Virus record (IMG/VR): IMGVR_UViG_3300011337_000467
Location: 31,723 to 95,722 of that record
DNA: 64,000 bases
Reading direction: 5' to 3' (one strand)
From: a virus
Taxonomy: Duplodnaviria > Heunggongvirae > Uroviricota > Caudoviricetes
Shown here one piece after another: positions 36,062-63,851 of this stretch; within the stretch, counting starts at the first letter, position 1, and each line of letters begins with the position of its first letter. The translations under genes were made by a program, and so were the position numbers. Under the pieces are notes generated by a model, which made no database searches, was not told the DNA's origin, and saw only the letters and a list, made by a program, of their open reading frames with translations.

Positions 36062-36113
36062 ATACTTTACAATTACACAAAGGTCATCCACGACCTAAAC
36101 TCGGAGAATAAAA

Positions 36114-37243: not shown

Positions 37244-37626
37244 TGTCCACCTGGGTGCTAACTACCAAGACCAAAAAGAACGCTGTTGAAAAGCAGTTTT
37301 GGACCAAGGATGGGCGAACTATCATCCGTGAAGAAGGCTATCGTTGGGGCAAGTTCTACTGCGAAAACGACGAGCGCCCTGATGTGGATCTTGCCAACCC
37401 AGATGGCTATGAACTTGGCGACAGTGAGTATGACTGGGAACTTGACCATCTTGATGATGGCTGTTGGGCAGACTGGACATTTCCAGATGACATGACTGAA
37501 GAAGAACAACAAGCAATCGAAGCAGCCTGGGACGAAGACTTTTACGATGGTATGGAAGGTCTAGGCTGGAGCAATGATGATACTGAATACTGGTTCTACG
37601 GTGAACTGGAACTGGAACAAGCATGA
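37243..37626 (+). CDS. Highly acidic Trp-rich protein (DNA-mimic or anti-restriction candidate)
   Basis: 127 aa with long D/E runs ('DWELDHLDDGCWADWTFPDDMTEEEQQAIEAAWDEDFYDG'). Confidence 0.4.
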   Translation: MSTWVLTTKTKKNAVEKQFWTKDGRTIIREEGYRWGKFYCENDERPDVDLANPDGYELGDSEYDWELDHLDDGCWADWTFPDDMTEEEQQAIEAAWDEDFYDGMEGLGWSNDDTEYWFYGELELEQA

Positions 37627-39369: not shown

Positions 39370-39761
39370 CTGATTTAGAAATTGCACGTCAACAAGGCAT
39401 TGCACCCTGGGACGACCGTGTGGAAGAACTTTCGGACTTTCATGTAGCTGCGTTCCGTGATCGCTTTCCAGTAACTTCAGGACATTTGTTGTTTGTGCCA
39501 CAATACAATACTGATGATGTAATCATGGAATGTTTTGAATCAGCCATGTTGCATGGTCGGCGTATGGTAGCTGATGGCAAGTGTGATGCGTTCAACATTG
39601 GCATCAACATGGGGCGAGAAGCAGGGCAAACTGTAATGTATCCGCATGTGCATTTGATTCCACGACGTGTGGGCGATTGTGCAGATCCTGTGGGTGGGGT
39701 ACGTGGAGTTATTCACGGACAAGCCAACTACAAAACAACAGGCTATCAACAACCTGCATAA
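39366..39761 (+). CDS. HIT-family (histidine-triad) nucleotide hydrolase/transferase-like protein
   Basis: 'AFRDRFPVTSGHLLFVPQ' and 'GQTVMYPHVHLIPR' match HIT blocks. The triad is degenerate (HVHLI instead of HxHxH). ATGA overlap with the upstream gene. Confidence 0.55.
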   Translation: MTDLEIARQQGIAPWDDRVEELSDFHVAAFRDRFPVTSGHLLFVPQYNTDDVIMECFESAMLHGRRMVADGKCDAFNIGINMGREAGQTVMYPHVHLIPRRVGDCADPVGGVRGVIHGQANYKTTGYQQPA

Positions 39762-39797
39762 GTATTTCTCTAAGCGGCCTGTCCGGCATCATCCCGC

Positions 39798-39826
39798 TAT
39801 ACAAACTCTGCTGCCTATGCTATAAT
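39798..39826 (+). promoter_or_regulatory. Candidate promoter (TATACA-17-TATAAT) upstream of queD
   Basis: Perfect -10 TATAAT at 39821-39826 with a 4/6 -35 at 39798-39803. GGAGG Shine-Dalgarno follows. Confidence 0.4.
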
Positions 39827-39844
39827 GTCATAGGAGGACAAATA

Positions 39845-40342
39845 ATGCAACCGATAACATACAAATTTACTTCAACCAAAGAGTACCATGACGCATTTCC
39901 ATGTGCGTATAGACAGTGGAGGGCTGACAGCCACTGCAATCTAATTCATGGTTACAGTTTTTCGATGAAGTTTTACTTTGGCACAGACAACCTGGATGTA
40001 CGCAATTGGGCAGCCGATTATGGTGGTCTCAAAGAACTCAAGAAGCAATTGGAAGATCAATTTGATCATACCTTACTAGTATCTGCAGATGATCCAGAGC
40101 TGGAAACATACAAGCTCTTGCAAGAGAAGAAAATGGCCAAACTCACCATCCTACCACGGCTGGGCTGTGAAGGCCTAGCAGACATGCTGTACAAGTATGT
40201 GAACGGTGTTTACATTCCGGACCTGTGGGGACCGGGTGAAGCAGAGCGTCTCTGGTGCTATCGTGTAGAAGTGCGTGAAACACAGAGCAACATGGCTTTC
40301 CGAGAAGGCCATCGCGAGTGGATGGAAGATCTGTTCGTTTAA
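39845..40342 (+). CDS. queD: 6-carboxy-5,6,7,8-tetrahydropterin synthase (QueD/PTPS fold)
   Basis: 'CNLIHGYSF' (CxxxHGH-type zinc motif) and 'DHTLL' (DHxxLN-like). Start at Met 39845 with a GGAGG Shine-Dalgarno. Confidence 0.65.
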   Translation: MQPITYKFTSTKEYHDAFPCAYRQWRADSHCNLIHGYSFSMKFYFGTDNLDVRNWAADYGGLKELKKQLEDQFDHTLLVSADDPELETYKLLQEKKMAKLTILPRLGCEGLADMLYKYVNGVYIPDLWGPGEAERLWCYRVEVRETQSNMAFREGHREWMEDLFV

Positions 40343-40359
40343 TATAACAAGGAAAAATC

Positions 40360-40986
40360 ATGTTAGATCGAATCTTAAATGGTGTTGACCGTGCATTGGC
40401 CTACAAGCTCATGCTGGCACATATCATTATTATTGCTGTTAGCAATTACATCGTGCAATTTAAATTCTCAGTGTTTGGTGCACCATTGGCAGCAGCCGCG
40501 TTCACATTTCCACTAGTGGTTGTGTTGACCGACTTGACTGTGCGAATGTTAGGCAAACAAACTGGTCGTGCCGTGATTGCCTTGGCATTCATCCCTGCCA
40601 TCATTGTATCAATGGCGGTAGTCAAATTAGGCGGTGCTCCTGACTCAGTGGCTTTCCGGATTGGTCTTGGTTCAGGTGTTGCATACTTTGTGAGCAATTT
40701 GCTTGATGTGTACGTGTTCCAATACATTCGTGAGAAGTATGCTACTTGGTGGATTGCACCTGCGTTGAGTTCAATTGTGAGCACATTCTTTGATACCTAT
40801 GTGTTCTTCTTTACTGCATTTGCCGGTGGTGCCAATGAGTTTATGGCTGCTAACTGGCACATTGTTGCAACCAACAATTCAATCAGCAAAGTCATTGTGA
40901 GCTTATTGGTTATCCTACCTGCTTATGGATTGTTGTTGAGTCACTTGCAGAAAAAAATAGTAGAAGATATTAAACAACCTAACTAA
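40360..40986 (+). CDS. yhhQ: YhhQ/Vut-family queuosine-precursor (preQ0/preQ1) transporter
   Basis: 'AVSNYIVQ', 'FTFPLVVVLTDLTVR' and ~6 TM segments match the YhhQ (DUF165) pattern ('SSNYLVQ...FLATDLTVR') closely. Confidence 0.75.
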   Translation: MLDRILNGVDRALAYKLMLAHIIIIAVSNYIVQFKFSVFGAPLAAAAFTFPLVVVLTDLTVRMLGKQTGRAVIALAFIPAIIVSMAVVKLGGAPDSVAFRIGLGSGVAYFVSNLLDVYVFQYIREKYATWWIAPALSSIVSTFFDTYVFFFTAFAGGANEFMAANWHIVATNNSISKVIVSLLVILPAYGLLLSHLQKKIVEDIKQPN

Positions 40987-41003
40987 TGGACATTGACCAT
41001 AAC

Positions 41004-41029
41004 AAAAACCCAGGTAACTCTGGGTTTTT
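41004..41029 (+). terminator. Rho-independent terminator hairpin
   Basis: AAAAACCCAG-gtaact-CTGGGTTTTT: 5-bp GC-rich stem, 6-nt loop, A-tract before and T5 after. Confidence 0.6.
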
Positions 41030-41069
41030 AACAAGTTATATCCAGGGCACAGAACAGATTAAATAAGAC

Positions 41070-43043
41070 ATGAACAAAAAAACAATAAGTTTTGTACAGC
41101 CCAACTTTCAACAAGGGCCTAAAGAATTCAATGCCTACTACTTGCCGTATTCTGCAGGTGTGATTTTGAGTTACGCCTTTGGGTTTGAGCATATTAAAAA
41201 TGCCTGGGAAATTGATGAATTAATTTGGCGTAGAGAGCCCATTGAAGAAGCAGCCGCAAGATTGCAACACAATGACATTGTGGCGTTTAGTGCCTATGTA
41301 TGGAATCACAGATACAACTACAAACTAGCACGTCGAATCAAAGAACTCAATCCCAAAGTAAAAATTATATTTGGTGGACCCGAGCCTGCTATTACGGATC
41401 CTGAATTGTTTGTGAAAGAACCTTTCATGGATCTTGTGAGCAAGATGGAAGGCGAGATCACATTCAAACGCATCCTAGAAGATTTTGACACAGACTTTAC
41501 GCACATTCCTGGCTTGTTGATTAACACACCAGCAGGGCTAGTAGACACTGGAGATTGTGCCAGAATCGACAATCTAGATCAAATCCCCAGTCCTTACCTT
41601 GCCGGCATCTTTGATCGAATCATAGCTGAAAATCCTGATGTAATTTGGAATGCTACATTGGAAACCAATCGCGGTTGCCCTTATCAGTGTACCTTTTGTG
41701 ACTGGGGCAGTCTCACTTACAACAAGGTCAAGAAATTTGAACTCACTAGAGTGTTCCATGAATTAGAATGGATTGGTCGCCATTGCGGATTTGTCACAAT
41801 CACAGATGCCAACTTTGGCATGTTCATTGAACGTGACAACATGATTGTGGACAAGTTGATTGAAGTACAAAAGCAATGGGCCAAGCTGGCGTCATTTTCT
41901 ATGACATGGGCCAAGAATCAAAAGAACGAAGTAGTGGGCATTGTAAAGAAATTGATCGACGAAAGCCCCAACTTTGGTCAAGGCCTTACTGTGAGTGTGC
42001 AAAGCATGGACCACGATGTGTTGGAAAACATCAAGCGTAGAAATCTTGATCAACACAAGATTGACGAAATCTTTGCTTTGTGTGATCGCAACAATATTCC
42101 TGTGTACACAGAAGTTATCTTGGGCTTGCCAGGTGAAACTGTGGAAACTTGGAAAAATGCTTTTTGGCAAATCTTCCGTGCAGGTAACCATACTGGTGTG
42201 AACATTCTCCAAGCGCAGTTGTTGGAAAATGCCGAGATGAATCTCTTGCAAAAACGAATGTGGAAGCTGGATTCAGTGCCAGTGTATGACTACATGAGTG
42301 GCAGCTATGGTGATGTAGACATGGACGAGTGTGTGGATGTTGTGGTAGGAACCAAAGACATTCCACGAGAAATGATGTTGGACACACTGGTATGGAACAG
42401 TTTTATTCAAACTTTTCACATCAACGGGTTGACCACGTACATTGCTAGATACTTGGCCAAAGCTCATGACATTGACTACAGTGAGTTCTACGACAGTTTG
42501 TACAAGTATATTGAAAGCGATGCATGGTTTCAACAACAGTTTGATGAGACACGCAGTTACTTTAGAAACTGGACCACAGACGGTCGTATCAATCATCCTC
42601 GAATTGGCAACATCGAAGTGTTTGGATGGAATCTTGTGCATCGAACCACTTTGTATATGCAACAGCAACAAAAGATCAATCATGTGTTCGATATCATTGA
42701 CAACTTTGTAAGAACCACGTATACTATTGACAGCAACATACTAAATCAGTTGTTGCAGTTTCAGAGAAACTATGTGATTGATTACAAAGATTTACCAGCA
42801 TTGCCAATTCAACAAAAGTTTGACTATGACTTTCTTGGATATCTACTGGACGATGCTGACATCAACACACCATGCTTGTACAAATTTGACAGCGTGGAAG
42901 ATAAAACCATGAGCATGGATCGGTTCTTAGAGAACATGTATTTTGCTCGCAAGCGGAATTTTGGAAAAACAACAATAACAAAAACTAATTCAGCCAACTT
43001 ACCTGAAATAGAATATGACAACAGAGAACTTATTACCCCTTGA
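41070..43043 (+). CDS. Class B (cobalamin-binding) radical SAM enzyme
   Basis: N-terminal B12-binding-like region (IVAFSAYVWNH...KIIFGGPEP) followed by 'NRGCPYQCTFCDW' CxxxCxxC. 657 aa. Confidence 0.65.
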   Translation: MNKKTISFVQPNFQQGPKEFNAYYLPYSAGVILSYAFGFEHIKNAWEIDELIWRREPIEEAAARLQHNDIVAFSAYVWNHRYNYKLARRIKELNPKVKIIFGGPEPAITDPELFVKEPFMDLVSKMEGEITFKRILEDFDTDFTHIPGLLINTPAGLVDTGDCARIDNLDQIPSPYLAGIFDRIIAENPDVIWNATLETNRGCPYQCTFCDWGSLTYNKVKKFELTRVFHELEWIGRHCGFVTITDANFGMFIERDNMIVDKLIEVQKQWAKLASFSMTWAKNQKNEVVGIVKKLIDESPNFGQGLTVSVQSMDHDVLENIKRRNLDQHKIDEIFALCDRNNIPVYTEVILGLPGETVETWKNAFWQIFRAGNHTGVNILQAQLLENAEMNLLQKRMWKLDSVPVYDYMSGSYGDVDMDECVDVVVGTKDIPREMMLDTLVWNSFIQTFHINGLTTYIARYLAKAHDIDYSEFYDSLYKYIESDAWFQQQFDETRSYFRNWTTDGRINHPRIGNIEVFGWNLVHRTTLYMQQQQKINHVFDIIDNFVRTTYTIDSNILNQLLQFQRNYVIDYKDLPALPIQQKFDYDFLGYLLDDADINTPCLYKFDSVEDKTMSMDRFLENMYFARKRNFGKTTITKTNSANLPEIEYDNRELITP

Positions 43044-43872
43044 CAATCCCATCGACATCAGTATTTTATTGCCCACTCGTGGCAGACCAAAACCACTAGA
43101 ACAATGCCTACGCACTCTACTTGACCGGGCCAAAGACCCCAGTCGAATAGAAGTGATGTTGGCATTTGATAATGATGATAGTGAAAACATCAAACACTTT
43201 GTGGATGTCGTACAACCTTATCTTGATGACCTTGGTGTAGAATACAGCGCCATACAGTTTGAAAGATTAGGGTACATGCGACTAAACGAGTACCTTAACG
43301 AGTTGGCCAAGCACAGTCAAGGCTCTTGGTTGTTCTTTTGGAATGACGATGCTGTGATGAAAACACAGGATTGGGATCAGGTGATTCGAGACAACGGGCA
43401 AGAATTCAATTTGCTCCGTGCCGAAACCAATCACGAACACCCTTATGCTATCTTTCCTATCCTGCCAAAGAAGTGGGTGGAAATTACTGGCCATTTGAGT
43501 CCGCATCAAATCAACGATGCCTGGACCAGCCAAGTGGCTTGGATGTTGGATATTGTGAAAACAATTCCTGTAATGGTACACCATGAACGCTATGATCTTA
43601 CTGGCGAGAACTTGGATGAAACATTCAAAGAACGTATCATGTTGGAAAACATGCCCGGCAATGATCCTAGAGATTTCAATCACATTACCTGGCGCAAACG
43701 CAGGGTTGAAGAAACTGAAAAAATTGCAGACTATCTTGACAGCATAGGCCGCGATACCACGTGGTTTAGAGATTCAATGACCGGTAAAAATCCAAACATC
43801 TGGGCCAGAATGGTCCTGCAAGATCCACACAAACGATTAAGACAATGGAAGGACAGTCCCTTTGAGCAATGA
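43015..43872 (+). CDS. GT-A fold (GT2-like) glycosyltransferase
   Basis: 'ISILLPTRGRP..L..CL.TLL....DPSRIEVMLAFDNDDSE' matches the GT2 N-terminal block with a DxD-like 'DNDD'. Start may lie a few codons later since it overlaps the radical SAM stop. Confidence 0.5.
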   Translation: MTTENLLPLDNPIDISILLPTRGRPKPLEQCLRTLLDRAKDPSRIEVMLAFDNDDSENIKHFVDVVQPYLDDLGVEYSAIQFERLGYMRLNEYLNELAKHSQGSWLFFWNDDAVMKTQDWDQVIRDNGQEFNLLRAETNHEHPYAIFPILPKKWVEITGHLSPHQINDAWTSQVAWMLDIVKTIPVMVHHERYDLTGENLDETFKERIMLENMPGNDPRDFNHITWRKRRVEETEKIADYLDSIGRDTTWFRDSMTGKNPNIWARMVLQDPHKRLRQWKDSPFEQ

Positions 43873-44635
43873 ACTAATAGACAAGATTGTGCAGTACTGG
43901 GATCGCCAGCCCTGTAACATCAACCACAGCGCCAGTGAAGTTGGTACTGAACAATTCTTTAACGAGAATAGCGAAAAACGCTACTTTGTTGAACCACATC
44001 TCAAAGATCTAGCACAGTTTCATTTGTATGCTGGCAAACGTGTGTTAGAAATTGGATGTGGCATTGGTGCCGATGCAGCTGAGTTTGCCAAGCATGGTGC
44101 CGAGTATGTTGGTATCGATCTCAGCAGTGAAAGCATTGCATTGGCCCGGAAACGATTTGAAGTTTTGGGACTGGAAGGTCAATTCATTCAAGGTAGCGGC
44201 GATGATGACTTGTCACACTTGGGCAAATTTGATTTGGTTTACAGTTGTGGTGTGTTACATCACTATCCAGACATTGATCGTGTGATTGAAAACATACACA
44301 GTTTGACCGTGGACGGTGGCGAGTTCAAAATGCTAGTGTATGCTCGTGACAGTTGGAAGTATGCCATGATCCAAAAAGGTCTGGACCAATACGAAGCACA
44401 AGCCGGATGTCCGTATGCCAAAGCCTACACAAAAGAAGAAGTCTATCAGTTGCTAGAGGGCAAATTCCATATCGGACGCATTAGACAAGCGCATTGTTTC
44501 ATGTATAATGTACCTAAGTACAAGCAAGGTATCTATGAACTGGAACCTTGGTTTGCGGCAATGAGCGAAGAAATGCGTCAAGCAGTTCGCGAATACTTGG
44601 GTTGGCATCTACTGGTTAAAGCAACAAAAATATGA
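43862..44635 (+). CDS. Class I SAM-dependent methyltransferase
   Basis: 'VLEIGCGIGADAAEFAKHGAEYVGIDLS' motif I/II and 'LVYSCGVLHH' motif IV-like block. Confidence 0.7.
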   Translation: MSNELIDKIVQYWDRQPCNINHSASEVGTEQFFNENSEKRYFVEPHLKDLAQFHLYAGKRVLEIGCGIGADAAEFAKHGAEYVGIDLSSESIALARKRFEVLGLEGQFIQGSGDDDLSHLGKFDLVYSCGVLHHYPDIDRVIENIHSLTVDGGEFKMLVYARDSWKYAMIQKGLDQYEAQAGCPYAKAYTKEEVYQLLEGKFHIGRIRQAHCFMYNVPKYKQGIYELEPWFAAMSEEMRQAVREYLGWHLLVKATKI

Positions 44636-45504
44636 AATTAAAAGTTAGTGAGTTATTTTATTCTGCACAGGGCGAAGGACGCTTTGTTGGTGTTCCTTCA
44701 GTGTTCCTACGCACATACGGATGCAACTTCACTTGCTCAGGCTTTGGCTGCGCTCCGGGCGTACAGTCTACCGAAGCAGACCAAGTGGCAAAGAACATAC
44801 ACCTGTACAAGGATTTTCTTGAACTGCCGCTTGTGAACACCGGATGTGATAGCTACGCTTCGTGGCATCCTGCATTTAAGGAACTAAGTCACACACTCAC
44901 ACATGATGAACTGATTGAAAAGATGTTGGTTCTTACACCCAATCATCACTGGCAACAAGACAACGGCAATGATGTGCATCTTGTGATCACAGGTGGTGAA
45001 CCGCTGTTGGGTTGGCAGCGTGGATACGAAGAACTGCTGTCGCAAGGCAGTATGGGTGACTTAAAGAACATCACATTCGAAACCAATGGCACTCAAAAGT
45101 TACAGCCAGCATTTCGAACATTTTTGCACGAATGGCGTCGCCCTGCACTAGGGGCCGTGCCCACGCGAGAAATTACTTTCTCAGTAAGTCCCAAGCTATC
45201 AGCGTCAGGCGAATCGTGGTCGGATGCTATCAAGCCCGAGATTGTGGCAGACTATCAAATGCATGGCACAGTATATTTAAAATTTGTGGTAGAAACACTG
45301 GCACACTTTGAAGAAGTTGATCGTGCTGTGGCTGCATATCGTGAAGCAGGTTTCCGTGGTGTTACCTATGTGATGCCACAAGGCGGTGTGGTCACTCCAT
45401 ACGAACGCAACCGAGTGAATGTAGCTGACTGGGCACTGGCTCGTGGTTATAACTATAGCCCAAGATTGCATGTGGATCTCTGGGGCAATGGCTGGGGCAA
45501 ATAA
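44632..45504 (+). CDS. queE: 7-carboxy-7-deazaguanine synthase-like radical SAM enzyme (QueE family)
   Basis: 'SELFYSAQGEGRFVGVPSVFLRTYGCNFTCSGFGC', 'VITGGEP' and 'FSVSPKL' parallel the E. coli QueE blocks. ATGA overlap with the methyltransferase gene. Confidence 0.65.
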   Translation: MKLKVSELFYSAQGEGRFVGVPSVFLRTYGCNFTCSGFGCAPGVQSTEADQVAKNIHLYKDFLELPLVNTGCDSYASWHPAFKELSHTLTHDELIEKMLVLTPNHHWQQDNGNDVHLVITGGEPLLGWQRGYEELLSQGSMGDLKNITFETNGTQKLQPAFRTFLHEWRRPALGAVPTREITFSVSPKLSASGESWSDAIKPEIVADYQMHGTVYLKFVVETLAHFEEVDRAVAAYREAGFRGVTYVMPQGGVVTPYERNRVNVADWALARGYNYSPRLHVDLWGNGWGK

Positions 45505-45708
45505 ATGTCCGAAACAAAAAAACGTACAGTAGCAAGGATGCTTACATATAGATTGACAGCCTGGCTGTTCACAATCTTTTGGACATACCTATTTACAGGT
45601 AATCTAGGCAACTCAGCAGGGTTTGCTACTGCATTACACATTCTGTTGAGTGTTGATTACTACATACACGAACGTATATGGTTGAAAATCAAATGGGGAC
45701 TCAAGTAA
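45505..45708 (+). CDS. Small two-TM membrane protein
   Basis: Starts 1 nt after the queE stop. Two hydrophobic helices. Confidence 0.4.
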   Translation: MSETKKRTVARMLTYRLTAWLFTIFWTYLFTGNLGNSAGFATALHILLSVDYYIHERIWLKIKWGLK

Positions 45709-45761
45709 TGACCAGTCTCCAAAGCAAACAAACATGTTATTTTTAAAATTAAAAGGAATTA

Positions 45762-46862
45762 ATGAGTTATCTATTTACAAGTGAAAGTGTGTCAGAAGGA
45801 CATCCGGACAAAATCGCGGATGCTATTAGCGATGCAGTGCTAGACATTGTGATGGCTAAACAGGATCCCGCTCTACGTTGCGCATGCGAAACGTTGGTTA
45901 CTACCAATCGTGTGGTGGTGGCAGGAGAATACAAAGGCGTTTTACATGCTGAGGAAGTTGAATCAGCAGTGAGAAAAGTTATCAAGGATGTGGGTTACGA
46001 ACAGTCAGGTTTTGATTGGCGTACGGCAGAAATTACCAACTTGTTACACGGGCAAAGTGCAGATATTGCACTGGGTACAGATACGTTTGGCGCAGGCGAT
46101 CAGGGCTTGATGTTTGGTTATGCCTGCAACGAAACTGATAATCATATGCCCAGTGCAATCTATTGGAGCCATCGTATTGTAGAAACTTTGACTCGTGTAC
46201 GAAAAAGTTTAGCACTGCCGTGGTTAGGACCAGACGCCAAAAGTCAAGTAACGTTTGAATACAACGACAATGGTACTCCCAAACGCATTGCCAAAGTAGT
46301 TTGCTCAACTCAGCATCATGAGTCCGTGGACATCGACCAAGTTCGAATGTCTGTTGAAAGTGTAATCCGTGGTACTCTTCCTGAAAAATATGTTGATGAC
46401 AAAACTGAATTTTATATTAACCCTACTGGTAGATTTGTTATTGGTGGGCCTGATGGCGATACTGGGCTTACTGGCCGCAAGATTATTGTTGACACTTACG
46501 GCGGGTATAGTCCTCATGGTGGCGGAGCCTTCAGCGGCAAAGATCCTACTAAAGTGGATCGCAGTGCTGCCTACTTAACACGCTGGATTGCCAAGAACAT
46601 TGTGGCAAGTGGTCAAGCACCGTGGGCTACAGTGCAGATCAGTTACGCAATTGGACTTGCACAACCCATGAGTTTCTACGTGGAAACAGCTGACGCACAA
46701 CAAGGACGTGATCTAACTAAATGGATTCAGGATAACGTTGACTTGACACCCAAGGGTATTATTGAACGTTTTGACTTGTTCCGCCCTATCTATAGTACAA
46801 CAACTAACTACGGGCATTTTGGCAAAGACTATTTGCCTTGGGAAACTGTGGATTTATTCTAA
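45762..46862 (+). CDS. metK: S-adenosylmethionine synthetase (MetK)
   Basis: 'LFTSESVSEGHPDKIAD', 'GAGDQG' and 'DTYGG' match MetK blocks. 366 aa. Confidence 0.9.
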   Translation: MSYLFTSESVSEGHPDKIADAISDAVLDIVMAKQDPALRCACETLVTTNRVVVAGEYKGVLHAEEVESAVRKVIKDVGYEQSGFDWRTAEITNLLHGQSADIALGTDTFGAGDQGLMFGYACNETDNHMPSAIYWSHRIVETLTRVRKSLALPWLGPDAKSQVTFEYNDNGTPKRIAKVVCSTQHHESVDIDQVRMSVESVIRGTLPEKYVDDKTEFYINPTGRFVIGGPDGDTGLTGRKIIVDTYGGYSPHGGGAFSGKDPTKVDRSAAYLTRWIAKNIVASGQAPWATVQISYAIGLAQPMSFYVETADAQQGRDLTKWIQDNVDLTPKGIIERFDLFRPIYSTTTNYGHFGKDYLPWETVDLF

Positions 46863-46871
46863 GGAAACTAT

Positions 46872-47258
46872 ATGGGATTTTTTGATAGATTTAAAAAGAA
46901 ATCTGAGCCCAAGGTCAAGGCCGAGACCAAGCCCAAGGTACCGGTAAAAACAGAAAAGCAACTTGCTACAGAAAAGGGCGAGCCTTATGTGGCTGTGCTT
47001 AGTATGGATGTGGATCCCAACAACCTGCATCAAGGTGCATTTGAACTAGACTGGAACGAAATCTTTGTGGCACGACTGGTCAAGGCTGGCTATATGTTGA
47101 AACCTGCTGACAGTGACGGCGAGATTGTGGATCGATGGTTTCAAAATGTGTGCCGACATGTTGTGATGGAAACATGGGAACAAGAACAAGCAATTAAAAA
47201 CTCCGGCATGTATGTGCAAAAACGTGATCTCGGAGACGGACGGAGCGAAATAGGATGA
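46872..47258 (+). CDS. Hypothetical protein (Lys-rich N-terminus)
   Basis: 128-aa ORF; no motif. Confidence 0.4.
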   Translation: MGFFDRFKKKSEPKVKAETKPKVPVKTEKQLATEKGEPYVAVLSMDVDPNNLHQGAFELDWNEIFVARLVKAGYMLKPADSDGEIVDRWFQNVCRHVVMETWEQEQAIKNSGMYVQKRDLGDGRSEIG

Positions 47259-47731
47259 TATTCAATCACATTAAAGACCTCAAAGCCGAAGGTAAAAAAA
47301 TCGGCATCACATTCAGTCAATTTGACATGCTACATGCAGGACACATTGCCATGTTGGCTGAAGCAAAAAATCATTGCGATTATCTAATTGTAGGCCTGCA
47401 AACAGATGCCAGCATTGACCGACCGGGAATTAAAAATCCCCCTGTGCAAAGCATTGTGGAACGCCAGATACAATTGAGTGCATGTAGATTTGTAGACGAA
47501 ATTGTTGTGTACACTACCGAACAAGACCTAATTGACTTGATACTAACCTTGCCAATCGATGTACGCATACTTGGTCGAGAATATGAAGATACTAACTTTA
47601 CTGGTCGCAATGAAGGTGCTGGGCAACACATTGAGCATGTGTTTAACAGCAGAGATCATTCATTCTCAAGTTCAAGCCTGCGCAAGCGTGTGGTGGCTGC
47701 CGAAACAGAAAAAGTATTACTACAACGATGA
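47255..47731 (+). CDS. Cytidylyltransferase-fold sugar-phosphate nucleotidyltransferase (RfaE domain II / TagD-like)
   Basis: 'IGITFSQFDMLHAGHIAMLAEAKNHCDYLIVGL' matches the GTFDxxHxGH...YLIVG signature. ATGA overlap upstream. Confidence 0.65.
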   Translation: MIFNHIKDLKAEGKKIGITFSQFDMLHAGHIAMLAEAKNHCDYLIVGLQTDASIDRPGIKNPPVQSIVERQIQLSACRFVDEIVVYTTEQDLIDLILTLPIDVRILGREYEDTNFTGRNEGAGQHIEHVFNSRDHSFSSSSLRKRVVAAETEKVLLQR

Positions 47732-51824: not shown

Positions 51825-52190
51825 GTGATCACCAAAGAAGAAATTACACAGAAAATTCTCCAAGGTCTTCCTGAAGAAGATCGTCCCACTTATGAAGAAG
51901 CGTGTAAATCATGGTGGATGAACTTTAGAGAAGGCGGCGGGTTTAGACTGACCAATGCTGGATACATGGCCTTGAGCACATGGAAGTTTGAAACATACTC
52001 ATTTGCTGTTCCGACTAACATAGTTGCTATTGCTAGACATTTGCTGACCTTGGACAAAAAGTTGGATTGTCCTTACTACATCAAAATTGGCAAGAATCCG
52101 CAAATTGTTCTGTTTGGCAGCCAGCAGGCAGTGATGTTAGCCATGTACAACGACTTGGAAAAATGGTTAAAGTATCTTAATCGCACATGA
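51825..52190 (+). CDS. Hypothetical protein
   Basis: 121 aa. Its 3' end overlaps the convergent minus-strand gene by 24 nt. Confidence 0.4.
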   Translation: MITKEEITQKILQGLPEEDRPTYEEACKSWWMNFREGGGFRLTNAGYMALSTWKFETYSFAVPTNIVAIARHLLTLDKKLDCPYYIKIGKNPQIVLFGSQQAVMLAMYNDLEKWLKYLNRT

Positions 52191-53114
52191 TTGTGCCTGG
52201 CGTACAAAATTTGCTCGTATCCAATTAGGGTACACATCAAGCACAAATTGTTTTTGATGTTGCAATCGTTCTTGGTATGGCTTGAGATCAATATTGCCTA
52301 GTATTAACTCTTTATTAAGTTTTAATGCTTCTTCGACTCTACGGTCATTGGGCAACCAATCATACGACGTGTTTACTAAATCTTCAAACATATCAAATCC
52401 AAGTTCTCGACAGTCTTGCACAATACCCGGATGTCCAATCAAAATAGGTATCTGTCCGGCAATCATTGCCTGCAATGTTTTTTCAGTTATTATGCCGGGT
52501 CGGTCTTCATACTGTGTTTCTGTAACAATGTTTACAGAGCACTGAGAATACAATGGTGCTAGACGCACAAAGTTTTTGTCATTTTCAGTACCGCGATAGC
52601 TAGAATAGTTCCATTGGTCAAGTAATATTTCGTCCCCATAACTTAAAATACCATCTGGCCAGGTTTTAAGAATGTTTACTACTTGCAATCTGTGATTGCA
52701 TTTTCTACCATTCAGACATTGCCAGGCCATGGATCTAGGTTGTTCAAAGTGATATTGCCATTCTGTTTGTCGTTTTCTAATAGTCTCGCAGGTTGCTAGA
52801 TTATGATTGCTAAACTCAATAAGATTGATAGGCCCAGAGTACAGCTGATCTAGCCCATGACTCCAATATGTTACCACCACTTGATTAGAATGCTGACCAT
52901 AGTGTGATTGTACTTGTGCTAATTCTGTTAATCCTGGAGTAACAAAGTCTTGAAAGTGTAGCAGTATCAACGTGCGTGGACCAAACTCAACATTGGGCAA
53001 TCGAAGAGGCCAGCCAGATTGTGAGTTGTAAGGGGGTTGAAAACAGTTGTATTCAGCCACAAGTTCTACACCCAATTGATCAAATGTATGGGCAATTAAT
53101 TCAGCATAGTTCAC
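52167..53114 (-). CDS. GT10-like (fucosyltransferase-family) glycosyltransferase, paralogue 2
   Basis: 'GIITEKTLQAMIAGQIPILIGHPGIVQDCRELGFDMFEDLVNTSYD' is close to the GT10 'YxTEK...IPV..G' C-terminal motif. Confidence 0.45.
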   Translation of the reverse strand: MNYAELIAHTFDQLGVELVAEYNCFQPPYNSQSGWPLRLPNVEFGPRTLILLHFQDFVTPGLTELAQVQSHYGQHSNQVVVTYWSHGLDQLYSGPINLIEFSNHNLATCETIRKRQTEWQYHFEQPRSMAWQCLNGRKCNHRLQVVNILKTWPDGILSYGDEILLDQWNYSSYRGTENDKNFVRLAPLYSQCSVNIVTETQYEDRPGIITEKTLQAMIAGQIPILIGHPGIVQDCRELGFDMFEDLVNTSYDWLPNDRRVEEALKLNKELILGNIDLKPYQERLQHQKQFVLDVYPNWIRANFVRQAQSCAIKIL

Positions 53115-53133
53115 AGGAGTATTTACTAAGTAT

Positions 53134-53844
53134 TTGATGTACTGGAATAATCCGTTAATTGAAGCACATTTTCCCGGCGACCAAGATCCTGTTCATGACA
53201 GTTTACACAATGGCACACATTGTTTATTTTGGAATCCAACCGCAGAATTTCAAAACTTACCAACCAACCAACGACTTGGTGAACTGTGCAGATGGGCCAT
53301 GGAATGGCTTGATCACGACGGCATAGATGGGTTTGCTGCCGATGCTCGCAATCATTATGATATTGCTAACTTGGTCAAATTGAATCTGTGGATACATGAT
53401 ATTCGAACACAAGGTATTGTGAAACCTTGGTTGTTGCTGGATCAAGATGGTACACTAGTCCCTGGTACCGGGGACAGTAGATTGAGATGTCTGGAACGCA
53501 TACCAGAAATTCAAACTGTACCAGCATTCATAAGCACACATGTCAACAGAGCCGATCAGTATCAGCATCTTGAGCCTGTGACCACGTTGGATCAGTTTGC
53601 TCGATTATGCGGAGCACGGCCTGGACAGTTGTTTACTTTTAGGCTGACAGATTCCGCTGCACCATTTGGCATGTACTGGTACGAATACAACAGTGACCAG
53701 ACCAGATGGGTCACACCTAATGAATCAGATTGTGTGCAGGCCTTTGTGGCCTATGCCCATGCTCATCCAGAAATTGTTATTACTCCTGAGTGGTTTGATC
53801 ACGTGATTGACTGGAATCAATACCACAATATTGTAAAAAAGTAG
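53134..53844 (+). CDS. Hypothetical protein
   Basis: 236 aa, divergent from the minus-strand GT gene. Its 3' end overlaps the asparagine-synthetase stop region. Confidence 0.4.
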   Translation: MMYWNNPLIEAHFPGDQDPVHDSLHNGTHCLFWNPTAEFQNLPTNQRLGELCRWAMEWLDHDGIDGFAADARNHYDIANLVKLNLWIHDIRTQGIVKPWLLLDQDGTLVPGTGDSRLRCLERIPEIQTVPAFISTHVNRADQYQHLEPVTTLDQFARLCGARPGQLFTFRLTDSAAPFGMYWYEYNSDQTRWVTPNESDCVQAFVAYAHAHPEIVITPEWFDHVIDWNQYHNIVKK

Positions 53845-55315
53845 CCAACTGAATCTGTTTCCACTGTTCAGATCGATCAAGAGATGCAGGCACATGTACC
53901 CCCATCCAAGGCAAACTGTCGTTGCAGTGTCCTGCAAATCCTTGTTTGGGCAACAGTAAATCTCTAGGCCATTTTTCTAAAAACTTGTTTTGTAATAATG
54001 GTTTGCCTTGCCTCAAGTGCCAAGGTAAGTTAAGAGCAAACTTTATAATCTTAGGATGCATGAATGGCGAACGCGGTTCTATACTGTGTGCCATGGTCAT
54101 GGTATCTACGCCACGTGCATCAACTGCTGTGATCTGCACAAGGTAATCCATTAGTAGTGTGGCAGCACCTGCATGCCCTTGTGACGCAGACACACACTGA
54201 TCCCAAAGACGTTGACTGTCTGTGTCTGATGGATCAAAACAACTGTAAGGACTTGCAGATGTTTTGATGTCAAATGCCATGTTGCGATACACAGGATATC
54301 CGCCAAATAATTCATCAGCGGCTATGCCAGTAAACAAGATACGTTGTTGACAGTGATGAGCAATGTGCCATTGGCCAACAAAACTCCAACTCTGCACAGG
54401 CATTTGTGAACACTCAATGATGTCAACATAGTCCTGTGCCCAGTCACGTTCGGTCATGGGCAACTCAGTGAGATTTTGACATTGTTGATCAGTTAAGAAA
54501 TCTCTAATTCTCATGCTCACAGTGTCTTTGCCTTCACACACTGTGGTATACAATCCCGCAAACTCCGGCATGGCAGCCAGTATGATTCCAGAGTCCACGC
54601 CACCACTAAAGGTCAATCCTGCAGGTTCCGTAGGGCGCATGTCTGCTATGACCTTGTTAAATATCCAATCAAATTCTTCTTGAGCTTCTGAGTCACTCAT
54701 AGACTGTGGTGCTTGGACCCAGTCAAACATGCTGTCAAGCTGAAAACTCAAGCCAGTTTCGGTATACAATCGACCTGGTTCACAGCGTTCAATGCCCTGA
54801 TAAGGTGTGCGGCGTATGGTAGGCCAGTGCTTTTGACTCCATGCGTCAACTTGAATTTTGGGCTGTGTATAACACAAGATTGCCGACACTTCACTACTAA
54901 CAATCAAAATATCATCGTCTTGATATCGATACAAACAACGCTCGCCTTGTGGATCTGTTGCAAATCTCACTGACTCAAAATCAGTGTACACCCAAGCCCA
55001 AGGACCTTCAAAGTACGGAATCTTTTTGTAGTTTTGTTCTCGCACAGTGCGATACACTAATTCTGTGTCTGTAGTGTATCGGCCAAACCAACGATAGTTA
55101 TAAACTTCACCATTGTAGGCCAAGAAGTCTGATCGTGGTCGATGATAAAACTCATCTTCACCTGTGATATGTAACACAGTTTGCGCTATAAAAATATTGT
55201 CATGATGCTGGTAATGTGTGAAGTCTGGGCCACGAGCATGTATTTTATCAACTGCTTGTAGGTGTAGGTCAAGGTCAAGAGGCCGCTGACTTTTCACAAA
55301 CAATATGCCGCACAT
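53780..55315 (-). CDS. Asparagine synthetase (glutamine-hydrolysing) family amidotransferase
   Basis: N-terminal 'MCGI' Ntn nucleophile Cys2 and central 'LTFSGGVDSGIILA' PP-loop. 511 aa. Confidence 0.8.
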   Translation of the reverse strand: MCGILFVKSQRPLDLDLHLQAVDKIHARGPDFTHYQHHDNIFIAQTVLHITGEDEFYHRPRSDFLAYNGEVYNYRWFGRYTTDTELVYRTVREQNYKKIPYFEGPWAWVYTDFESVRFATDPQGERCLYRYQDDDILIVSSEVSAILCYTQPKIQVDAWSQKHWPTIRRTPYQGIERCEPGRLYTETGLSFQLDSMFDWVQAPQSMSDSEAQEEFDWIFNKVIADMRPTEPAGLTFSGGVDSGIILAAMPEFAGLYTTVCEGKDTVSMRIRDFLTDQQCQNLTELPMTERDWAQDYVDIIECSQMPVQSWSFVGQWHIAHHCQQRILFTGIAADELFGGYPVYRNMAFDIKTSASPYSCFDPSDTDSQRLWDQCVSASQGHAGAATLLMDYLVQITAVDARGVDTMTMAHSIEPRSPFMHPKIIKFALNLPWHLRQGKPLLQNKFLEKWPRDLLLPKQGFAGHCNDSLPWMGVHVPASLDRSEQWKQIQLATFLQYCGIDSSQSRDQTTQE

Positions 55316-56397
55316 TATTTTATTTTTTCAATTACACTGGGCCACCAGTTGGCAAAATCTGTAGGCCAGTTGGATTGCATTTGCGCTAATAAATTTTGGT
55401 TATGCTGTGCGGCTTGTTCACAGCGTTGAGATAGTTCAGGCCACGACGTAGCTTTAATCTTTTCGACAGCATCATGTCCTTCAAAGATAAAAACTACCAT
55501 TTTATCTCCAGGGTCAGCAGTTTTATTTTCAATTATACTATCATAGTCATGATTGATTAAGTCATGTAAAACATCAAATCCCAAACTGTGCAAGTATGCC
55601 ACAGTATGTTTGCCCGAATACACAATCCACGGCACAGGCAAACACAAAGCTCTAAACATTTTTTCACTGAGGGCTACAGTGGTATCCGAACTGTAAGTTT
55701 CTATTACAATATTAGCCCAGGCTTGTAAATGTGATTGTTTGTGTTCGAGATCATGATTACAAAACGGCATGTGTGGTAACAAGTCGTCATATACATGTTG
55801 ATAAACTTCTTGATACTGCAATTCCAATTGTTGCCATTGCTGTGTAAAATTTTCTTTCAATCCATTGACTGAACCGTTGTCGCCAGACCAGGACCAACAA
55901 TTAAAATTAATATAATCCAAATTGTCAACCTTGAATCCGTTAAGTGCCATTAACATAACACGGTTCCATATTTCTAATAATACCAACATACGTTTAGTAT
56001 CCAACCTGTTTACACTAAAATTAAAACGTCTGTCAGGGTTCCATTTTGCGTCAGACGGTGTATGATTGTATATGCCAAAAAAACTAGGAGGTAGTTGGCA
56101 CACTTGATATTGAGTTGGGACAGTAATGTAATTGTCTGTGATGACTACTGTGTCTTTATCAAAAAGATAAGGCAACGATGTGTTGTGATTTGTGCTACAG
56201 GTTGAAAAATCATCAACCAGGCATATCACAACTTGGCGTGTGCCACGTTGATAAACTTTATTATTGTCGCTTAGTGGTTCATATCCAAGTGATAACAAAT
56301 TGCTTCGAAAGAAATTCATGAGCATATTTTCATGCCAAATACATTGACTCTTTTGAAATATTTCTCCCTGATAAATTTGATGGTATAAATCTGTCAT
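55315..56397 (-). CDS. GT10-like (fucosyltransferase-family) glycosyltransferase, paralogue 3
   Basis: C-terminal 'LSEKMFRALCLPVPWIVYSGKHT...GFDVLHDLINHDYD' matches the paralogue motif. The long track ORF (to 56796) would overlap the plus-strand GIY-YIG gene, so the start was set at Met 'MTDLY' (56397). The start is uncertain. Confidence 0.4.
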   Translation of the reverse strand: MTDLYHQIYQGEIFQKSQCIWHENMLMNFFRSNLLSLGYEPLSDNNKVYQRGTRQVVICLVDDFSTCSTNHNTSLPYLFDKDTVVITDNYITVPTQYQVCQLPPSFFGIYNHTPSDAKWNPDRRFNFSVNRLDTKRMLVLLEIWNRVMLMALNGFKVDNLDYINFNCWSWSGDNGSVNGLKENFTQQWQQLELQYQEVYQHVYDDLLPHMPFCNHDLEHKQSHLQAWANIVIETYSSDTTVALSEKMFRALCLPVPWIVYSGKHTVAYLHSLGFDVLHDLINHDYDSIIENKTADPGDKMVVFIFEGHDAVEKIKATSWPELSQRCEQAAQHNQNLLAQMQSNWPTDFANWWPSVIEKIK

Positions 56398-56438: not shown

Positions 56439-56480
56439 AAAAAGTAGTACTTTTTACACCCAAAAAAGGTAGTACTTTTG
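56439..56480. promoter_or_regulatory. Two copies of an A5-GTAGTAC-T5 palindromic element (operator-like) in a divergent intergenic region
   Basis: AAAAAGTAGTACTTTTT (56439-56455) is a perfect 8+1+8 inverted repeat. A near copy, AAAAGGTAGTACTTTTG, lies at 56462-56480. Confidence 0.4.
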
Positions 56481-56506: not shown

Positions 56507-56535
56507 TTGACGGAAAATGCCCGAAATGCTATAAT
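56507..56535 (+). promoter_or_regulatory. sigma70-type promoter (TTGACG-17-TATAAT) for the GIY-YIG gene
   Basis: TTGACG at 56507-56512, 17-nt spacer, TATAAT at 56530-56535. It shares the 17-mer TGCTATAATACACACAT with the promoter at 56868. Confidence 0.55.
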
Positions 56536-56541
56536 ACACAC

Positions 56542-56871
56542 ATGATGCGAAAGAAACGTACTGATCGAAGCCACATAGTGTACTGTATCCAAATTGGATT
56601 TGAGTACTACATTGGTATTACCGCAAAAACCCAGCGCACAATTAACATGTCGCTCCGTAGCCGTGTGAACAAGCACATCTACCGTAGCCGTACAGAAGAC
56701 AAAGCCTGGAACCTGTACGAAGCAATTCGTGCCGCTGGCGAATCGGCTATCAACTACACCATCATCGACATTGTGCGTGGCAAAGATGCCGCACACAAGT
56801 TGGAGCGCGAGTTAATACAAAAGTATGCACCTGCGCTGAACACGGATGTTCGCGTGAAGCAAAACGGTTGA
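56542..56871 (+). CDS. Free-standing GIY-YIG endonuclease-domain protein (homing-endonuclease-like)
   Basis: '[18 protein letters not shown]' contains the GIY...YIG core, followed by Arg/His/Glu/Asn positions. ~109 aa, so only the catalytic domain is present. Confidence 0.6.
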
Positions 56872-56896
56872 CACCAAATCACCGTTTTGCTATAAT
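56868..56896 (+). promoter_or_regulatory. sigma70-type promoter (TTGACA-17-TATAAT), duplicate of the 56507 promoter core
   Basis: TTGACA at 56868-56873, 17-nt spacer, TATAAT at 56891-56896, followed by the identical ATACACACAT. AAGGAG Shine-Dalgarno and ATG at 56925 follow. Confidence 0.6.
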
Positions 56897-56924
56897 ACAC
56901 ACATAGACAACAAAGGAGCCCGAT

Positions 56925-57125
56925 ATGACCACTATAACTGTAGCACAAATGATTGAGGCACTCAGTGCCCTGCCCGCTGATGCTCGCTTGGTAGTGACCG
57001 AGTCTGGTTATTACTCCTACAGTGAGTTTGCGGATATCATGTTGCCGGAAGTGTATACTCCGGAAAATGATTTGACGCCAGGCGCACCCGTGTATCGTAT
57101 TGGACATTCACATCAATCTTATTAA
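56925..57125 (+). CDS. Small hypothetical protein
   Basis: 66 aa with a strong AAGGAG Shine-Dalgarno. Confidence 0.45.
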   Translation: MTTITVAQMIEALSALPADARLVVTESGYYSYSEFADIMLPEVYTPENDLTPGAPVYRIGHSHQSY

Positions 57126-57135
57126 GGAGCCCAAC

Positions 57136-57528
57136 ATGACCAACTGGACTGACCCTATCATACATTGGAATCAACTGCCCGGCACGGAAGTCAAACGACT
57201 GCTGGCCACATGGGGCATGGATGAAAAAGCCATAGCCCGCTATGATGCCAAGCATGGCTTTGCGCCGACACCGTTGAAAGTGCCTGCACCTGCAAAGGCA
57301 GTGGCAGTAAAGCCTGTGGTGGTTGCAGTGCCTAAAGCACCTGCAAAAAAGGCCGCACCTGCAAAGCCAGTGGCTCGTCAAAAGCATACAGGTGCGGACG
57401 GTGAGGTGAAGTTTGTGCCGCACCGCAATCTGTTTGTGGGCTTCTGGGGTGGTCGAGTGGTGGTGACCAAGCGCACCGAAGCCGCATGTGTGGAGTTTTT
57501 GAAAGCCTGCCAGGCACAAGGAGAGTAA
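57136..57528 (+). CDS. Hypothetical protein with an Ala/Lys/Pro-rich linker
   Basis: Start at Met 'MTNWT' with an AAGGAG Shine-Dalgarno. The linker 'PAPAKAVAVKPVVVAVPKAPAKKAAPAKP' is low complexity. Confidence 0.45.
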   Translation: MTNWTDPIIHWNQLPGTEVKRLLATWGMDEKAIARYDAKHGFAPTPLKVPAPAKAVAVKPVVVAVPKAPAKKAAPAKPVARQKHTGADGEVKFVPHRNLFVGFWGGRVVVTKRTEAACVEFLKACQAQGE

Positions 57529-63189: not shown

Positions 63190-63570
63190 ATGGAATTTCT
63201 TCCAGTATTAGAACTAATTGACAGACTCTGCATTGCCAGAGTAAAACATGCACGAACCAAAGGTGCCAACCAAGTTGAACTTGATTGGTACGAGGACAAG
63301 TTTCAACAACTACCACAAAGTCCCGAACTGGATTCAGACATTCAAGCCATGACCGATATCCATCATGCTATCTGGGATTTGGAATGGCAACTTAAATCAG
63401 GCGTGGAACAGATGTTGAGTCTACAAGAAATTGGCCGGCGTGCCATTGCCATTAGAGATCACAACAACAAACGCATTGCTTACAAAAATTCCATTGCCAC
63501 TATTTTGGGGCATCCAGTAAAGGAAATTAAACACGACCACTTGGCCGACGGCACAGTTGACACTAAATAG
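63190..63570 (+). CDS. Hypothetical protein
   Basis: 126-aa ORF downstream of a consensus promoter. Confidence 0.45.
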   Translation: MEFLPVLELIDRLCIARVKHARTKGANQVELDWYEDKFQQLPQSPELDSDIQAMTDIHHAIWDLEWQLKSGVEQMLSLQEIGRRAIAIRDHNNKRIAYKNSIATILGHPVKEIKHDHLADGTVDTK

Positions 63571-63593
63571 TTTTCCTGCTACAATGTAGCACA

Positions 63594-63668
63594 GGGCCAA
63601 TAGCTTAATGGTAAAGCAACCGACTCATAATCGGTCGAGTCTTGGTTCAATTCCAAGTTGGCCCACCA
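63594..63668 (+). tRNA. tRNA-Met (anticodon CAT; elongator-type or lysidine-Ile cannot be excluded)
   Basis: Cloverleaf with acceptor GGGCCAA/TTGGCCC, anticodon stem ACCGA/TCGGT, loop CTCATAA, T-arm CTTGG-TTCAATT-CCAAG, and an encoded CCA. No 3-GC anticodon-stem signature of initiator tRNA. Confidence 0.75.
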
Positions 63669-63672
63669 AACA

Positions 63673-63747
63673 CTGGCCGTAGTATAATGGATAATACAGT
63701 TGCCTTCTAAGCAATCAATCCAGGTTCGATTCCTGGCGGCCGGACCA
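63673..63747 (+). tRNA. tRNA-Arg (anticodon TCT)
   Basis: Acceptor CTGGCCG/CGGCCGG (one G-U pair), D-stem GTAT/ATAC, anticodon stem GTTGC/GCAAT, loop CTTCTAA, T-arm CCAGG-TTCGATT-CCTGG, encoded CCA. Confidence 0.7.
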
Positions 63748-63765
63748 TGCAGTAAATAACACAAA

Positions 63766-63851
63766 GCCAGAGTGGTGGAATGGTATACACAGCAGACTTA
63801 AAATCTGCCGCTTGAAAGGGCATACGGGTTCGATACCCGTCTCTGGTACCA
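63766..63851 (+). tRNA. tRNA-Leu (anticodon TAA), type II with a long variable arm
   Basis: Acceptor GCCAGAG/CTCTGGT, anticodon stem GCAGA/TCTGC, loop CTTAAAA, ~15-nt variable arm, T-arm ACGGG-TTCGATA-CCCGT, encoded CCA. Total 86 nt. Confidence 0.7.

Follow-up and report, generated by a model that had tools for sequence, protein, structure and literature searches.

A conserved stand-alone GIY-YIG nuclease gene, its repeated promoter module and a predicted leaderless start in large environmental phages

The DNA analysed here, referred to throughout as the window, is a stretch of 64,000 nucleotides from a virus of the Caudoviricetes (IMG/VR record IMGVR_UViG_3300011337_000467, positions 31,723 to 95,722), and on its + strand it carries a gene of 109 codons whose product is a GIY-YIG nuclease consisting of the catalytic domain only. 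We find that this gene is fixed, vertically inherited and under purifying selection, and is not a homing endonuclease gene. An identical 17-nucleotide (nt) sequence stands in front of the gene and again behind it, and this 17-mer is probably the core (extended −10, discriminator and start site) of an early-promoter module of 45–65 bp that related phages use repeatedly. What is new here is the nuclease family itself, which is unannotated, and a leaderless layout of its gene that is predicted for the whole family. The architectural and evolutionary account is held with high confidence; the explanation taken as a whole, which joins the promoter module, a leaderless and fixed early nuclease, and cassette recombination, is the one that we favour, with moderate confidence. 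The features on which the account is built are as follows, all on the + strand.

56507–56543, promoter P1: −35 TTGACG at 56507–56512, 17-nt spacer with TG, −10 TATAAT at 56530–56535, discriminator ACACAC
56542–56871, stand-alone GIY-YIG nuclease gene, 109 amino acids (aa), catalytic domain only, assigned from fold, invariant residues, synteny and selection
56868–56904, promoter P2: −35 TTGACA at 56868–56873, 17-nt spacer with TG, −10 TATAAT at 56891–56896
56903–56924, predicted 5′ untranslated region (UTR) of the P2 transcript, AUAGACAACAAAGGAGCCCGAU, with a putative GGAG Shine-Dalgarno site at 56915–56918

The GIY-YIG protein and its family

The nuclease open reading frame (ORF) extends from an ATG at 56542 to a TGA at 56869–56871. 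Against Pfam PF01541 the window protein scores 15.9 bits, which is below the cutoff of 22.6 that family members P0238 (30.5), P0125 (24.6), P0150 (24.1) and P0158 (23.6) pass. The GIY-YIG assignment is secure despite this sub-threshold score, since GIY-YIG families of PHROG match the window protein (E 9e-7) and the profile of the family matches full-length I-TevI over residues 4–89 (hhalign probability 91.8%, E 7e-7). A search of the PDB with the family profile also matched the I-TevI catalytic domain, and the same search with the single sequence returned noise only. No match for the nuclease was obtained in NCBIfam, and PADLOC gave one weak match (PbeC, E 0.007, 12.9 bits) that we regard as uninformative. 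The sequence family of T4 endonuclease II (DenA) was rejected as a relative, given an hhalign probability of 5.1% and an alignment of 21 C-terminal columns that covers the last motif only.

The AlphaFold model (predicted local distance difference test score, pLDDT, of 92.5) places the catalytic fold at residues 10–95 and predicts a three-stranded sheet with flanking helices, as in the GIY-YIG alpha/beta fold. In an alignment of 66 family members Y14, Y23, G25, R41, H45 and E88 do not vary, N100 shows at least 90% conservation, and R6, R63, G80 and L99 are also nearly invariant; the invariant residues and N100 align with Y6, Y17, R27, H31, E75 and N90 of I-TevI. A basic N-terminal motif, RKKRxDRxH, is specific to the family. 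The earlier note, made from the sequence alone, had described a GIY-YIG-only ORF of ~109 aa, and this description is borne out, with the catalytic Arg and Glu both intact. Taken together, the model and the profile matches identify the protein as an intact I-TevI-type GIY-YIG catalytic domain, for which cleavage activity would be expected.

A family search over 1.8 billion cluster representatives yielded 148 relatives at the 50%-identity clustering level, almost all of them stand-alone proteins of 100–125 aa, and every source annotates the family as ‘hypothetical protein’. The 109 residues contain neither a linker nor a DNA-binding domain, and inspection of the long family members for domain fusions gave nothing consistent. 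Among the viral structural neighbours of the protein, most of those with a homing-endonuclease annotation have ~190–470 aa.

The conserved residues also bear on the idea that the protein acts mainly as a regulator, for instance as an autorepressor at P1 and P2, or on RNA, the leaderless layout then serving regulation. I-TevI doubles as a transcriptional autorepressor, the family-specific basic motif is conserved, and the sequence common to P1 and P2 could be read by a single factor. I-TevI represses, however, through its C-terminal DNA-binding domain, which the nuclease lacks, and invariance of all catalytic residues across the family is unexpected for a pure binding role, such that we consider a mainly regulatory protein improbable.

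Vertical inheritance of the nuclease gene

Related loci were fetched via the nuclease (80 loci), via a conserved 95-aa gene ~6 kb upstream (75 more) and via the downstream 130-aa gene (34), and were clustered on two backbone proteins. Of 95 informative related loci, 89 carry the nuclease in syntenic position, and the remaining six fall into backbone clusters separate from those of the carriers. All untruncated loci of the window's own cluster and of a large neighbouring cluster carry the gene at 84–99% identity, two other backbone clusters carry a diverged form at 50–58% identity, and wherever the 130-aa gene is at least 75% identical (25/25 loci) the nuclease lies immediately upstream of it. 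Likewise, all nuclease-anchored loci examined have the nuclease downstream of the same conserved module, found at 44.6–52.2 kb in the window. Protein distances of the nuclease follow those of the backbone (Spearman 0.62; Mantel r 0.57, reached in 0 of 2000 permutations), their mean being 0.20 as compared with 0.23 for the backbone markers. The ratio of nonsynonymous to synonymous substitution (dN/dS) is ~0.15, and the gene is single-copy in the window. The synteny, the separate clustering of the non-carriers, the congruence with the backbone, the dN/dS and the single copy thus argue that the nuclease is not mobile. Its conservation resembles that of core genes and is the opposite of what is expected of an active homing endonuclease.

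The earlier note had taken the two flanking promoters as the mark of a mobile, intron-less homing endonuclease gene, and that claim does not survive the comparison. In its full form it supposes an active free-standing homing cassette that inserted into a promoter region, duplicated it, and is still spreading to empty alleles. Such a cassette would account for a catalytic domain nearest to I-TevI and the Seg clade, for promoter direct repeats on either side of the gene, and for the absence of the nuclease from some more distant lineages. It would not be expected to make do with 109 aa that lack a linker or DNA-binding domain, nor to show a phylogeny congruent with the backbone and purifying selection over divergence down to 50% identity; moreover, the promoter repeat flanks unrelated ORFs too, and it is the ORFs after P2 that vary. 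Neither presence/absence polymorphism within backbone clusters nor a precise empty junction was found among the related loci; a comparison with related genomes for just such an empty site had been proposed in that note. A pattern search for P1-type promoters without the ATG, as deletion alleles would present, found the module before other genes and no clean deletion of the nuclease. As to what the note had held would speak against mobility, the gene recurs in its usual context in relatives, the close ones offering no empty-site allele, whereas the catalytic residues are intact and not lost. We conclude that the mobile-cassette reading is largely refuted and assign it the least credence of the alternatives considered here.

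An additional nucleotide-level constraint or a recent sweep was suspected from a low-looking synonymous divergence and then set aside, as on matched genome pairs the divergence at fourfold sites (0.27 in the nuclease, 0.33–0.41 in neighbouring core genes) differs only modestly. The same numbers bear on a further alternative, modelled on marker exclusion by the T4 Seg proteins, in which the nuclease is a domesticated derivative of a homing endonuclease that serves phage–phage competition and cuts co-infecting relatives that lack the gene or carry another allele, rather than the host. In agreement with such a role, the catalytic domain is of the homing-endonuclease type, nuclease-less related lineages co-occur in the same kinds of sample, the gene stands at the front of a region hypervariable from one relative to another, and two deeply diverged allele classes (85–99% and 50–58% identity to the window) track different lineages. 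The protein has no targeting domain, however, co-conversion tracts or allele exchange between the lineages were not found, and synonymous divergence that is just modestly below that of core genes adds little; we therefore regard this alternative as unlikely.

The promoter module, the leaderless start and the variable early region

The exact 17-mer TGCTATAATACACACAT occurs twice on the + strand, at 56527–56543 and 56888–56904, and no third copy was found in the 64-kb window with two mismatches allowed; two matches were reached in 0 of 100 shuffles. Within the promoter, the 17-mer takes in the TG extension and the TATAAT −10 box and continues for eight bases beyond it. The identical 17-mers with −35 boxes at the same spacing, as reported in the earlier note, are thus confirmed as exactly two copies, each with a 17-nt spacer and a TG-extended −10. 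Against the sigma-70 consensus P1 scores 11/12 and P2 12/12, both being among the top four sites of the 52–64 kb region. The start site at P1 is predicted to be A56542, which is the A of the nuclease start codon, and that at P2 to be A56903. At the other end of the gene the TGA stop codon sits inside the −35 hexamer of P2.

The nuclease is indeed bracketed by two promoter copies, as the earlier note had it, and these are paralogous over more than the 17-mer, with a likeness of ~45 nt that begins at GGTTGAC and takes in the spacer and the start site. The eight nucleotides that follow the −10 hexamer, ACACACAT, are missing from the other strong promoters of the window. Because of this, and because P1 and P2 align over ~45 nt, third copies occur, and the module is reused before other genes, the promoter module is more than a generic promoter consensus. 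The 6-nt spacing between −10 and ATG described below, the ~45-nt likeness and a hairpin found at P2 only all go beyond what the earlier note had described. Its second suggestion, that a promoter was copied and that the gene is an accessory nuclease, is still viable in outline, with a change of direction: the note had the promoter of the downstream gene copied to drive the nuclease, and in our version the copying served to drive the gene downstream. In 104 of 112 untruncated related loci P2 lies within 80 nt of the nuclease stop codon; some nuclease lineages have no P2, and there the next gene follows directly, with a Shine-Dalgarno site.

Could two strong promoters have converged on the host consensus, with neither a common origin nor a module behind the shared 17-mer? 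The extended −10 consensus (TGnTATAAT) does make up most of the 17-mer, and P1–P2 identity is 0.650 within genomes versus 0.640 between genomes (reached in 30 of 5000 permutations), so that homogenisation within genomes is statistically weak. Convergence does not explain ACACACAT, which lies outside any consensus, nor a likeness that reaches GGTTGAC, the spacer and, in leader-bearing copies, the UTR. It also does not explain why in individual genomes (L149, L105 and L151) the discriminator is altered jointly in both copies, and we hold it to be very improbable.

The geometry at P1 is the basis of the leaderless prediction. In the sequence TATAAT-ACACAC-ATG the nuclease ATG starts 6 nt after the −10 hexamer, which leaves no room for a leader, and the mRNA is thus predicted to be leaderless and to be translated without a 5′ UTR. 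A −10 hexamer followed by exactly 6 nt and an ATG is present in 116 of 117 related loci, and the same layout is seen in family members of only 43–50% identity on unrelated short contigs (P0121, P0125 and P0135 being the distant members tested); in one family member, at 39% identity, the spacing is 9 nt. The diverged nucleases (50–58% identity) have N-termini that are 5–6 residues longer (MNTKT..., MEAKN..., MDSKK...) and keep the 6-nt spacing, which implies that the position of the start codon follows the promoter rather than the protein core. The motifs GGAG, GAGG or AGGA occur 4–20 nt before the first ATG in 20 of the 61 large + strand ORFs of the window; as lack of a Shine-Dalgarno site is common in this phage, the leaderless argument draws on the promoter geometry and its conservation. 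No leaderless transcripts were found when the transcripts of the giant phage phiKZ were mapped (PMC8244752).

Small ORFs examined after P2-type promoter copies have strong AAGGAG sites, unlike most large + strand ORFs, a contrast that may come from the host of the phage or from different regimes of early and later translation. Two further observations concern message starts. In L157 (4001–4700) the first codons (ATGGACAGTAAGAAAAC) of a 58%-identical nuclease are homologous to the untranslated leader (ATACAGTAAGAAAAC) of a neighbouring promoter copy, and leader sequence appears there to have been recruited as coding sequence. In the window, a DnaJ-like co-chaperone gene (1913–2698) begins 8 nt past a perfect TTGACA-N17-TATAAT promoter (1876–1904) and provides another candidate in the phage for a message that is leaderless or nearly so.

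Two elements adjoin the promoters, both on the + strand.

56442–56479, upstream of P1: palindromic motif in two copies of 11–13 bp, AAGTAGTACTTTT at 56442–56454 and AGGTAGTACTTTT at 56467–56479
56858–56891, at P2: hairpin AGCAAAACGGU ... ACCGUUUUGCU, reaching from the 3′ end of the nuclease ORF across both the −35 box and the spacer of P2

In the upstream motif, GTAGTACTTTT is repeated in tandem and in helical phase, with AAAAGTAgTACTTTT as the palindrome, and no further copies occur in the window. Relatives retain two to three copies immediately 5′ of the −35 box, independent of which gene lies further upstream, and the GTAGTAC repeats together with the promoter module also precede other genes in related contigs (L198–L202). 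The motif is probably an upstream promoter element or a regulator-binding site. As for the hairpin, its RNA fold has an energy of −15.7 kcal/mol and a z-score of −4.4, with 0 of 200 shuffles as stable, and relatives with a different sequence at this site also fold (z −4.0, −3.1 and −2.1), whereas P1 is without a hairpin (z 0.06). It may be a terminator- or attenuator-like structure, or an inverted-repeat binding site.

Downstream of P2 the + strand continues with two early-region genes.

56925–57125, ORF of 66 aa, the first gene after P2, with no Pfam match
57136–57528, ORF of 130 aa, the next putative early gene

The 66-aa ORF is a variable cassette, which is present in loci L013–L022 and absent from L002–L012, where P2 directly drives the 130-aa gene. 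Relatives that have an extra ORF after P2 (L001, L007, L012, L015, L029 and L030) have a third module copy after that ORF, before the 66-aa or 130-aa gene, and the P2-type UTR belongs to the repeated module in relatives. In more distant, nuclease-less phages the module, with an A/C-rich leader and GGAG, stands directly before the homologue of the 130-aa gene, and in relatives it is also found before tRNA genes and other genes. The ORFs after P2 thus vary between module copies, and the nuclease does not. The upstream side of the nuclease gene is variable as well, since the mainly minus-strand cassette at 52167–56397, which separates the conserved module from the nuclease, is found in some relatives, exchanged in others and missing from still others. 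This cassette holds a 315-aa ORF, a 511-aa asparagine-synthase-like amidotransferase, a 360-aa ORF and, on the + strand, a 236-aa ORF. Further along the window the genes for tRNA-Met, tRNA-Arg and tRNA-Leu (63557–63851) lie directly behind a strong promoter (63557–63585), and the tRNA promoters of relatives share an ACACA(C/T)AT start region with P1 and P2. Many related metagenomic contigs (L006, L008, L025, L026, L053, L054, L062, L071 and others) end ~100–700 nt downstream of the nuclease, which fits assembly breaks at a repeated promoter or a hypervariable region.

Repeated promoter/stem-loop cassettes (promoter-early stem-loop, PeSL) have been described in hyperplastic regions of T4-type phages, where they flank ORFs that differ between close relatives (PMC2839356, PMC4122927), and the array found here resembles them, any recombination or termination at its copies being putative. 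That a dedicated protein might act at the stem-loop is suggested as a possibility in the 2010 PeSL paper (PMC2839356). A bolder variant of our proposal would cast the nuclease as such a helper, which nicks the repeated promoter/hairpin module and thereby stimulates the recombination that shuffles the early-gene cassettes. The module brackets the nuclease gene, which sits at the head of the shuffled region, as this variant would have it. On the other hand, the module occurs in nuclease-less phages, some nuclease-bearing lineages are without P2, and any site preference is conjectural; we consider the variant quite improbable.

Proposed mechanism, phage context and comparison with known systems

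On sequence grounds the phage belongs to the T4 superfamily and is a jumbo phage of freshwater type. Its DNA polymerase is T4-type and 47–51% identical to those of the jumbo phages Atu_ph07 and Phosso. Relatives are abundant in IMG/VR, where some contigs reach 200–360 kb. DNA of the region had no matches in cultured-phage records at near or distant sensitivity, and a protein search of these records gave only 29%-identity matches to a Salmonella phage homing endonuclease. A scan of 185,579 species-representative bacterial genomes returned a sole match, L197, a 3.1-kb contig that is 92% identical and lies in a metagenome-assembled genome labelled ‘uncultured actinobacterium’; it is probably a mis-binned phage fragment and was rejected as too weak a clue to the host. 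The window also holds genes for 7-deazaguanine (preQ0) precursor synthesis.

36114–36806, FolE (GTP cyclohydrolase I)
39677–40342, PTPS/QueD-type enzyme
40360–40986, YhhQ/Vut_1-type transporter
44632–45504, QueE-like radical S-adenosylmethionine (SAM) enzyme

Some phages insert 7-deazaguanine bases into their own DNA, and the precursor pathway hints at modified DNA or tRNA in this phage. The surrounding block (34528–47731), with genes related to sugars and SAM, further encodes an NAD-dependent epimerase/dehydratase, a DegT-type aminotransferase, a GT2 glycosyltransferase, a methyltransferase, a B12-binding radical SAM enzyme, a SAM synthetase and a cytidylyltransferase, which suggests complex glycan synthesis or hypermodification.

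We propose that host RNA polymerase, starting at P1 on the A of the nuclease ATG, would make a leaderless message, and that P2, which overlaps the nuclease stop codon and the hairpin, would re-initiate transcription with a normal leader and Shine-Dalgarno site for the small ORFs. In relatives, two or three tandem copies of the module would open the variable early region, and PeSL-style recombination between the copies would cause the ORFs after P2 to differ from one close relative to the next. The nuclease is fixed at the head of the small-ORF block behind host-type promoters, and its own host-type promoter points to immediate-early expression. The most probable role of its product would be to cleave or nick the DNA of the host or of competitors right at the outset of infection, much as T4 endonuclease II does, with the DNA of the phage itself perhaps shielded by base modification. 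A role against host or competitor DNA has in our estimate about one chance in three, and self-protection by DNA modification is only a possibility.

Several points weigh against this explanation. Both the start sites and the leaderless state of the message are predicted from sequence; the missing Shine-Dalgarno site, given the 20 of 61 large ORFs that have one, was dropped as a special trait of the nuclease; and the homogenisation of P1 and P2 within genomes is weak. The P2 hairpin was not called by a simple terminator scan, its loop being too long and a free U-tract absent, and to judge from its sequence it is not a canonical intrinsic terminator. With regard to function, the analogy with T4 endonuclease II is drawn from fold and gene position only. 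An isolated I-TevI-type catalytic domain binds DNA poorly, and the nuclease may need a partner protein or oligomerisation. Finally, no DpdA-type DNA transglycosylase was recognised in the window.

The most far-reaching form of the proposal is that the family is the immediate-early weapon of a widespread freshwater clade of T4-superfamily jumbo phages, always leaderless and driven by a reused promoter module, which degrades host or competitor DNA and spares its own, possibly 7-deazaguanine-modified, DNA. We put this forward as a speculation that is more probably wrong than right by some way; if true, the nuclease would be a counterpart of T4 endonuclease II in function, for a different DNA-modification chemistry. 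Several consequences hold at the level of architecture and family. Direct repeats around a small GIY-YIG gene need not signal a mobile homing cassette, and in this case the repeats are regulatory modules. A compact nuclease family of ~110 aa is defined that is conserved like core replication genes in a clade of large environmental phages. The conserved, predicted leaderless layout offers a clean and testable case for asking why a potentially toxic enzyme would be expressed without a 5′ UTR, and PeSL-like shuffling of promoter cassettes would be extended past the classical T4-like phages.

Among known systems, I-TevI, the homing endonuclease of the T4 td intron (PDB 1ln0, 1mk0), has its catalytic domain in common with the nuclease. 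At 245 aa, I-TevI adds a linker and a C-terminal DNA-binding domain that confer site specificity and mobility, whereas the 109-aa protein has the catalytic domain only; unlike I-TevI, the nuclease is neither intron-encoded nor sporadic, and it has the family-specific basic N-terminal motif. The GIY-YIG homing endonucleases of the T4 Seg group resemble it in their catalytic domain, in an intergenic and not intronic location, and in belonging to the same phage superfamily. DNA-binding modules are part of the Seg proteins, whose distribution is patchy; SegG, the sole Seg gene checked, is ~210 aa in length, as compared with a 109-aa nuclease that is fixed in its clade and co-diverges with it.

With respect to the layout of the message, a phage precedent is lambda cI, whose mRNA is leaderless when made from PRM. 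As there, transcription from the nuclease promoter is predicted to start at the A of the AUG, the message having neither a 5′ UTR nor a Shine-Dalgarno site. Lambda cI is, however, the repressor of a temperate phage, whereas here the message encodes a nuclease of a large phage of lytic type and the layout is kept across a whole protein family. In function, the closest precedent would be T4 endonuclease II (DenA; PDB 2wsh), annotated as a small stand-alone GIY-YIG enzyme that initiates degradation of cytosine-containing DNA; phage-DNA modification and substrate discrimination are putative for the nuclease described here.

The promoter array is best compared with PeSL (Arbiol et al. 2010; Comeau et al. 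2014). Both comprise a repeated near-consensus sigma-70 promoter, combined in PeSL with a stem-loop and in the window, at P2, with a putative counterpart of it, in copies that cluster in a variable region of small early ORFs and flank ORFs that differ between close relatives, and the window stem, A4CGG...CCGT4, resembles the nt-1/KVP40 type, A3-4G3-loop-C3T3-4. Unlike in PeSL, the window hairpin extends over the −35 box and spacer and is not placed upstream, P1 is free of a hairpin, a conserved start region and a UTR form part of the module, and one module copy is fused directly to a start codon.

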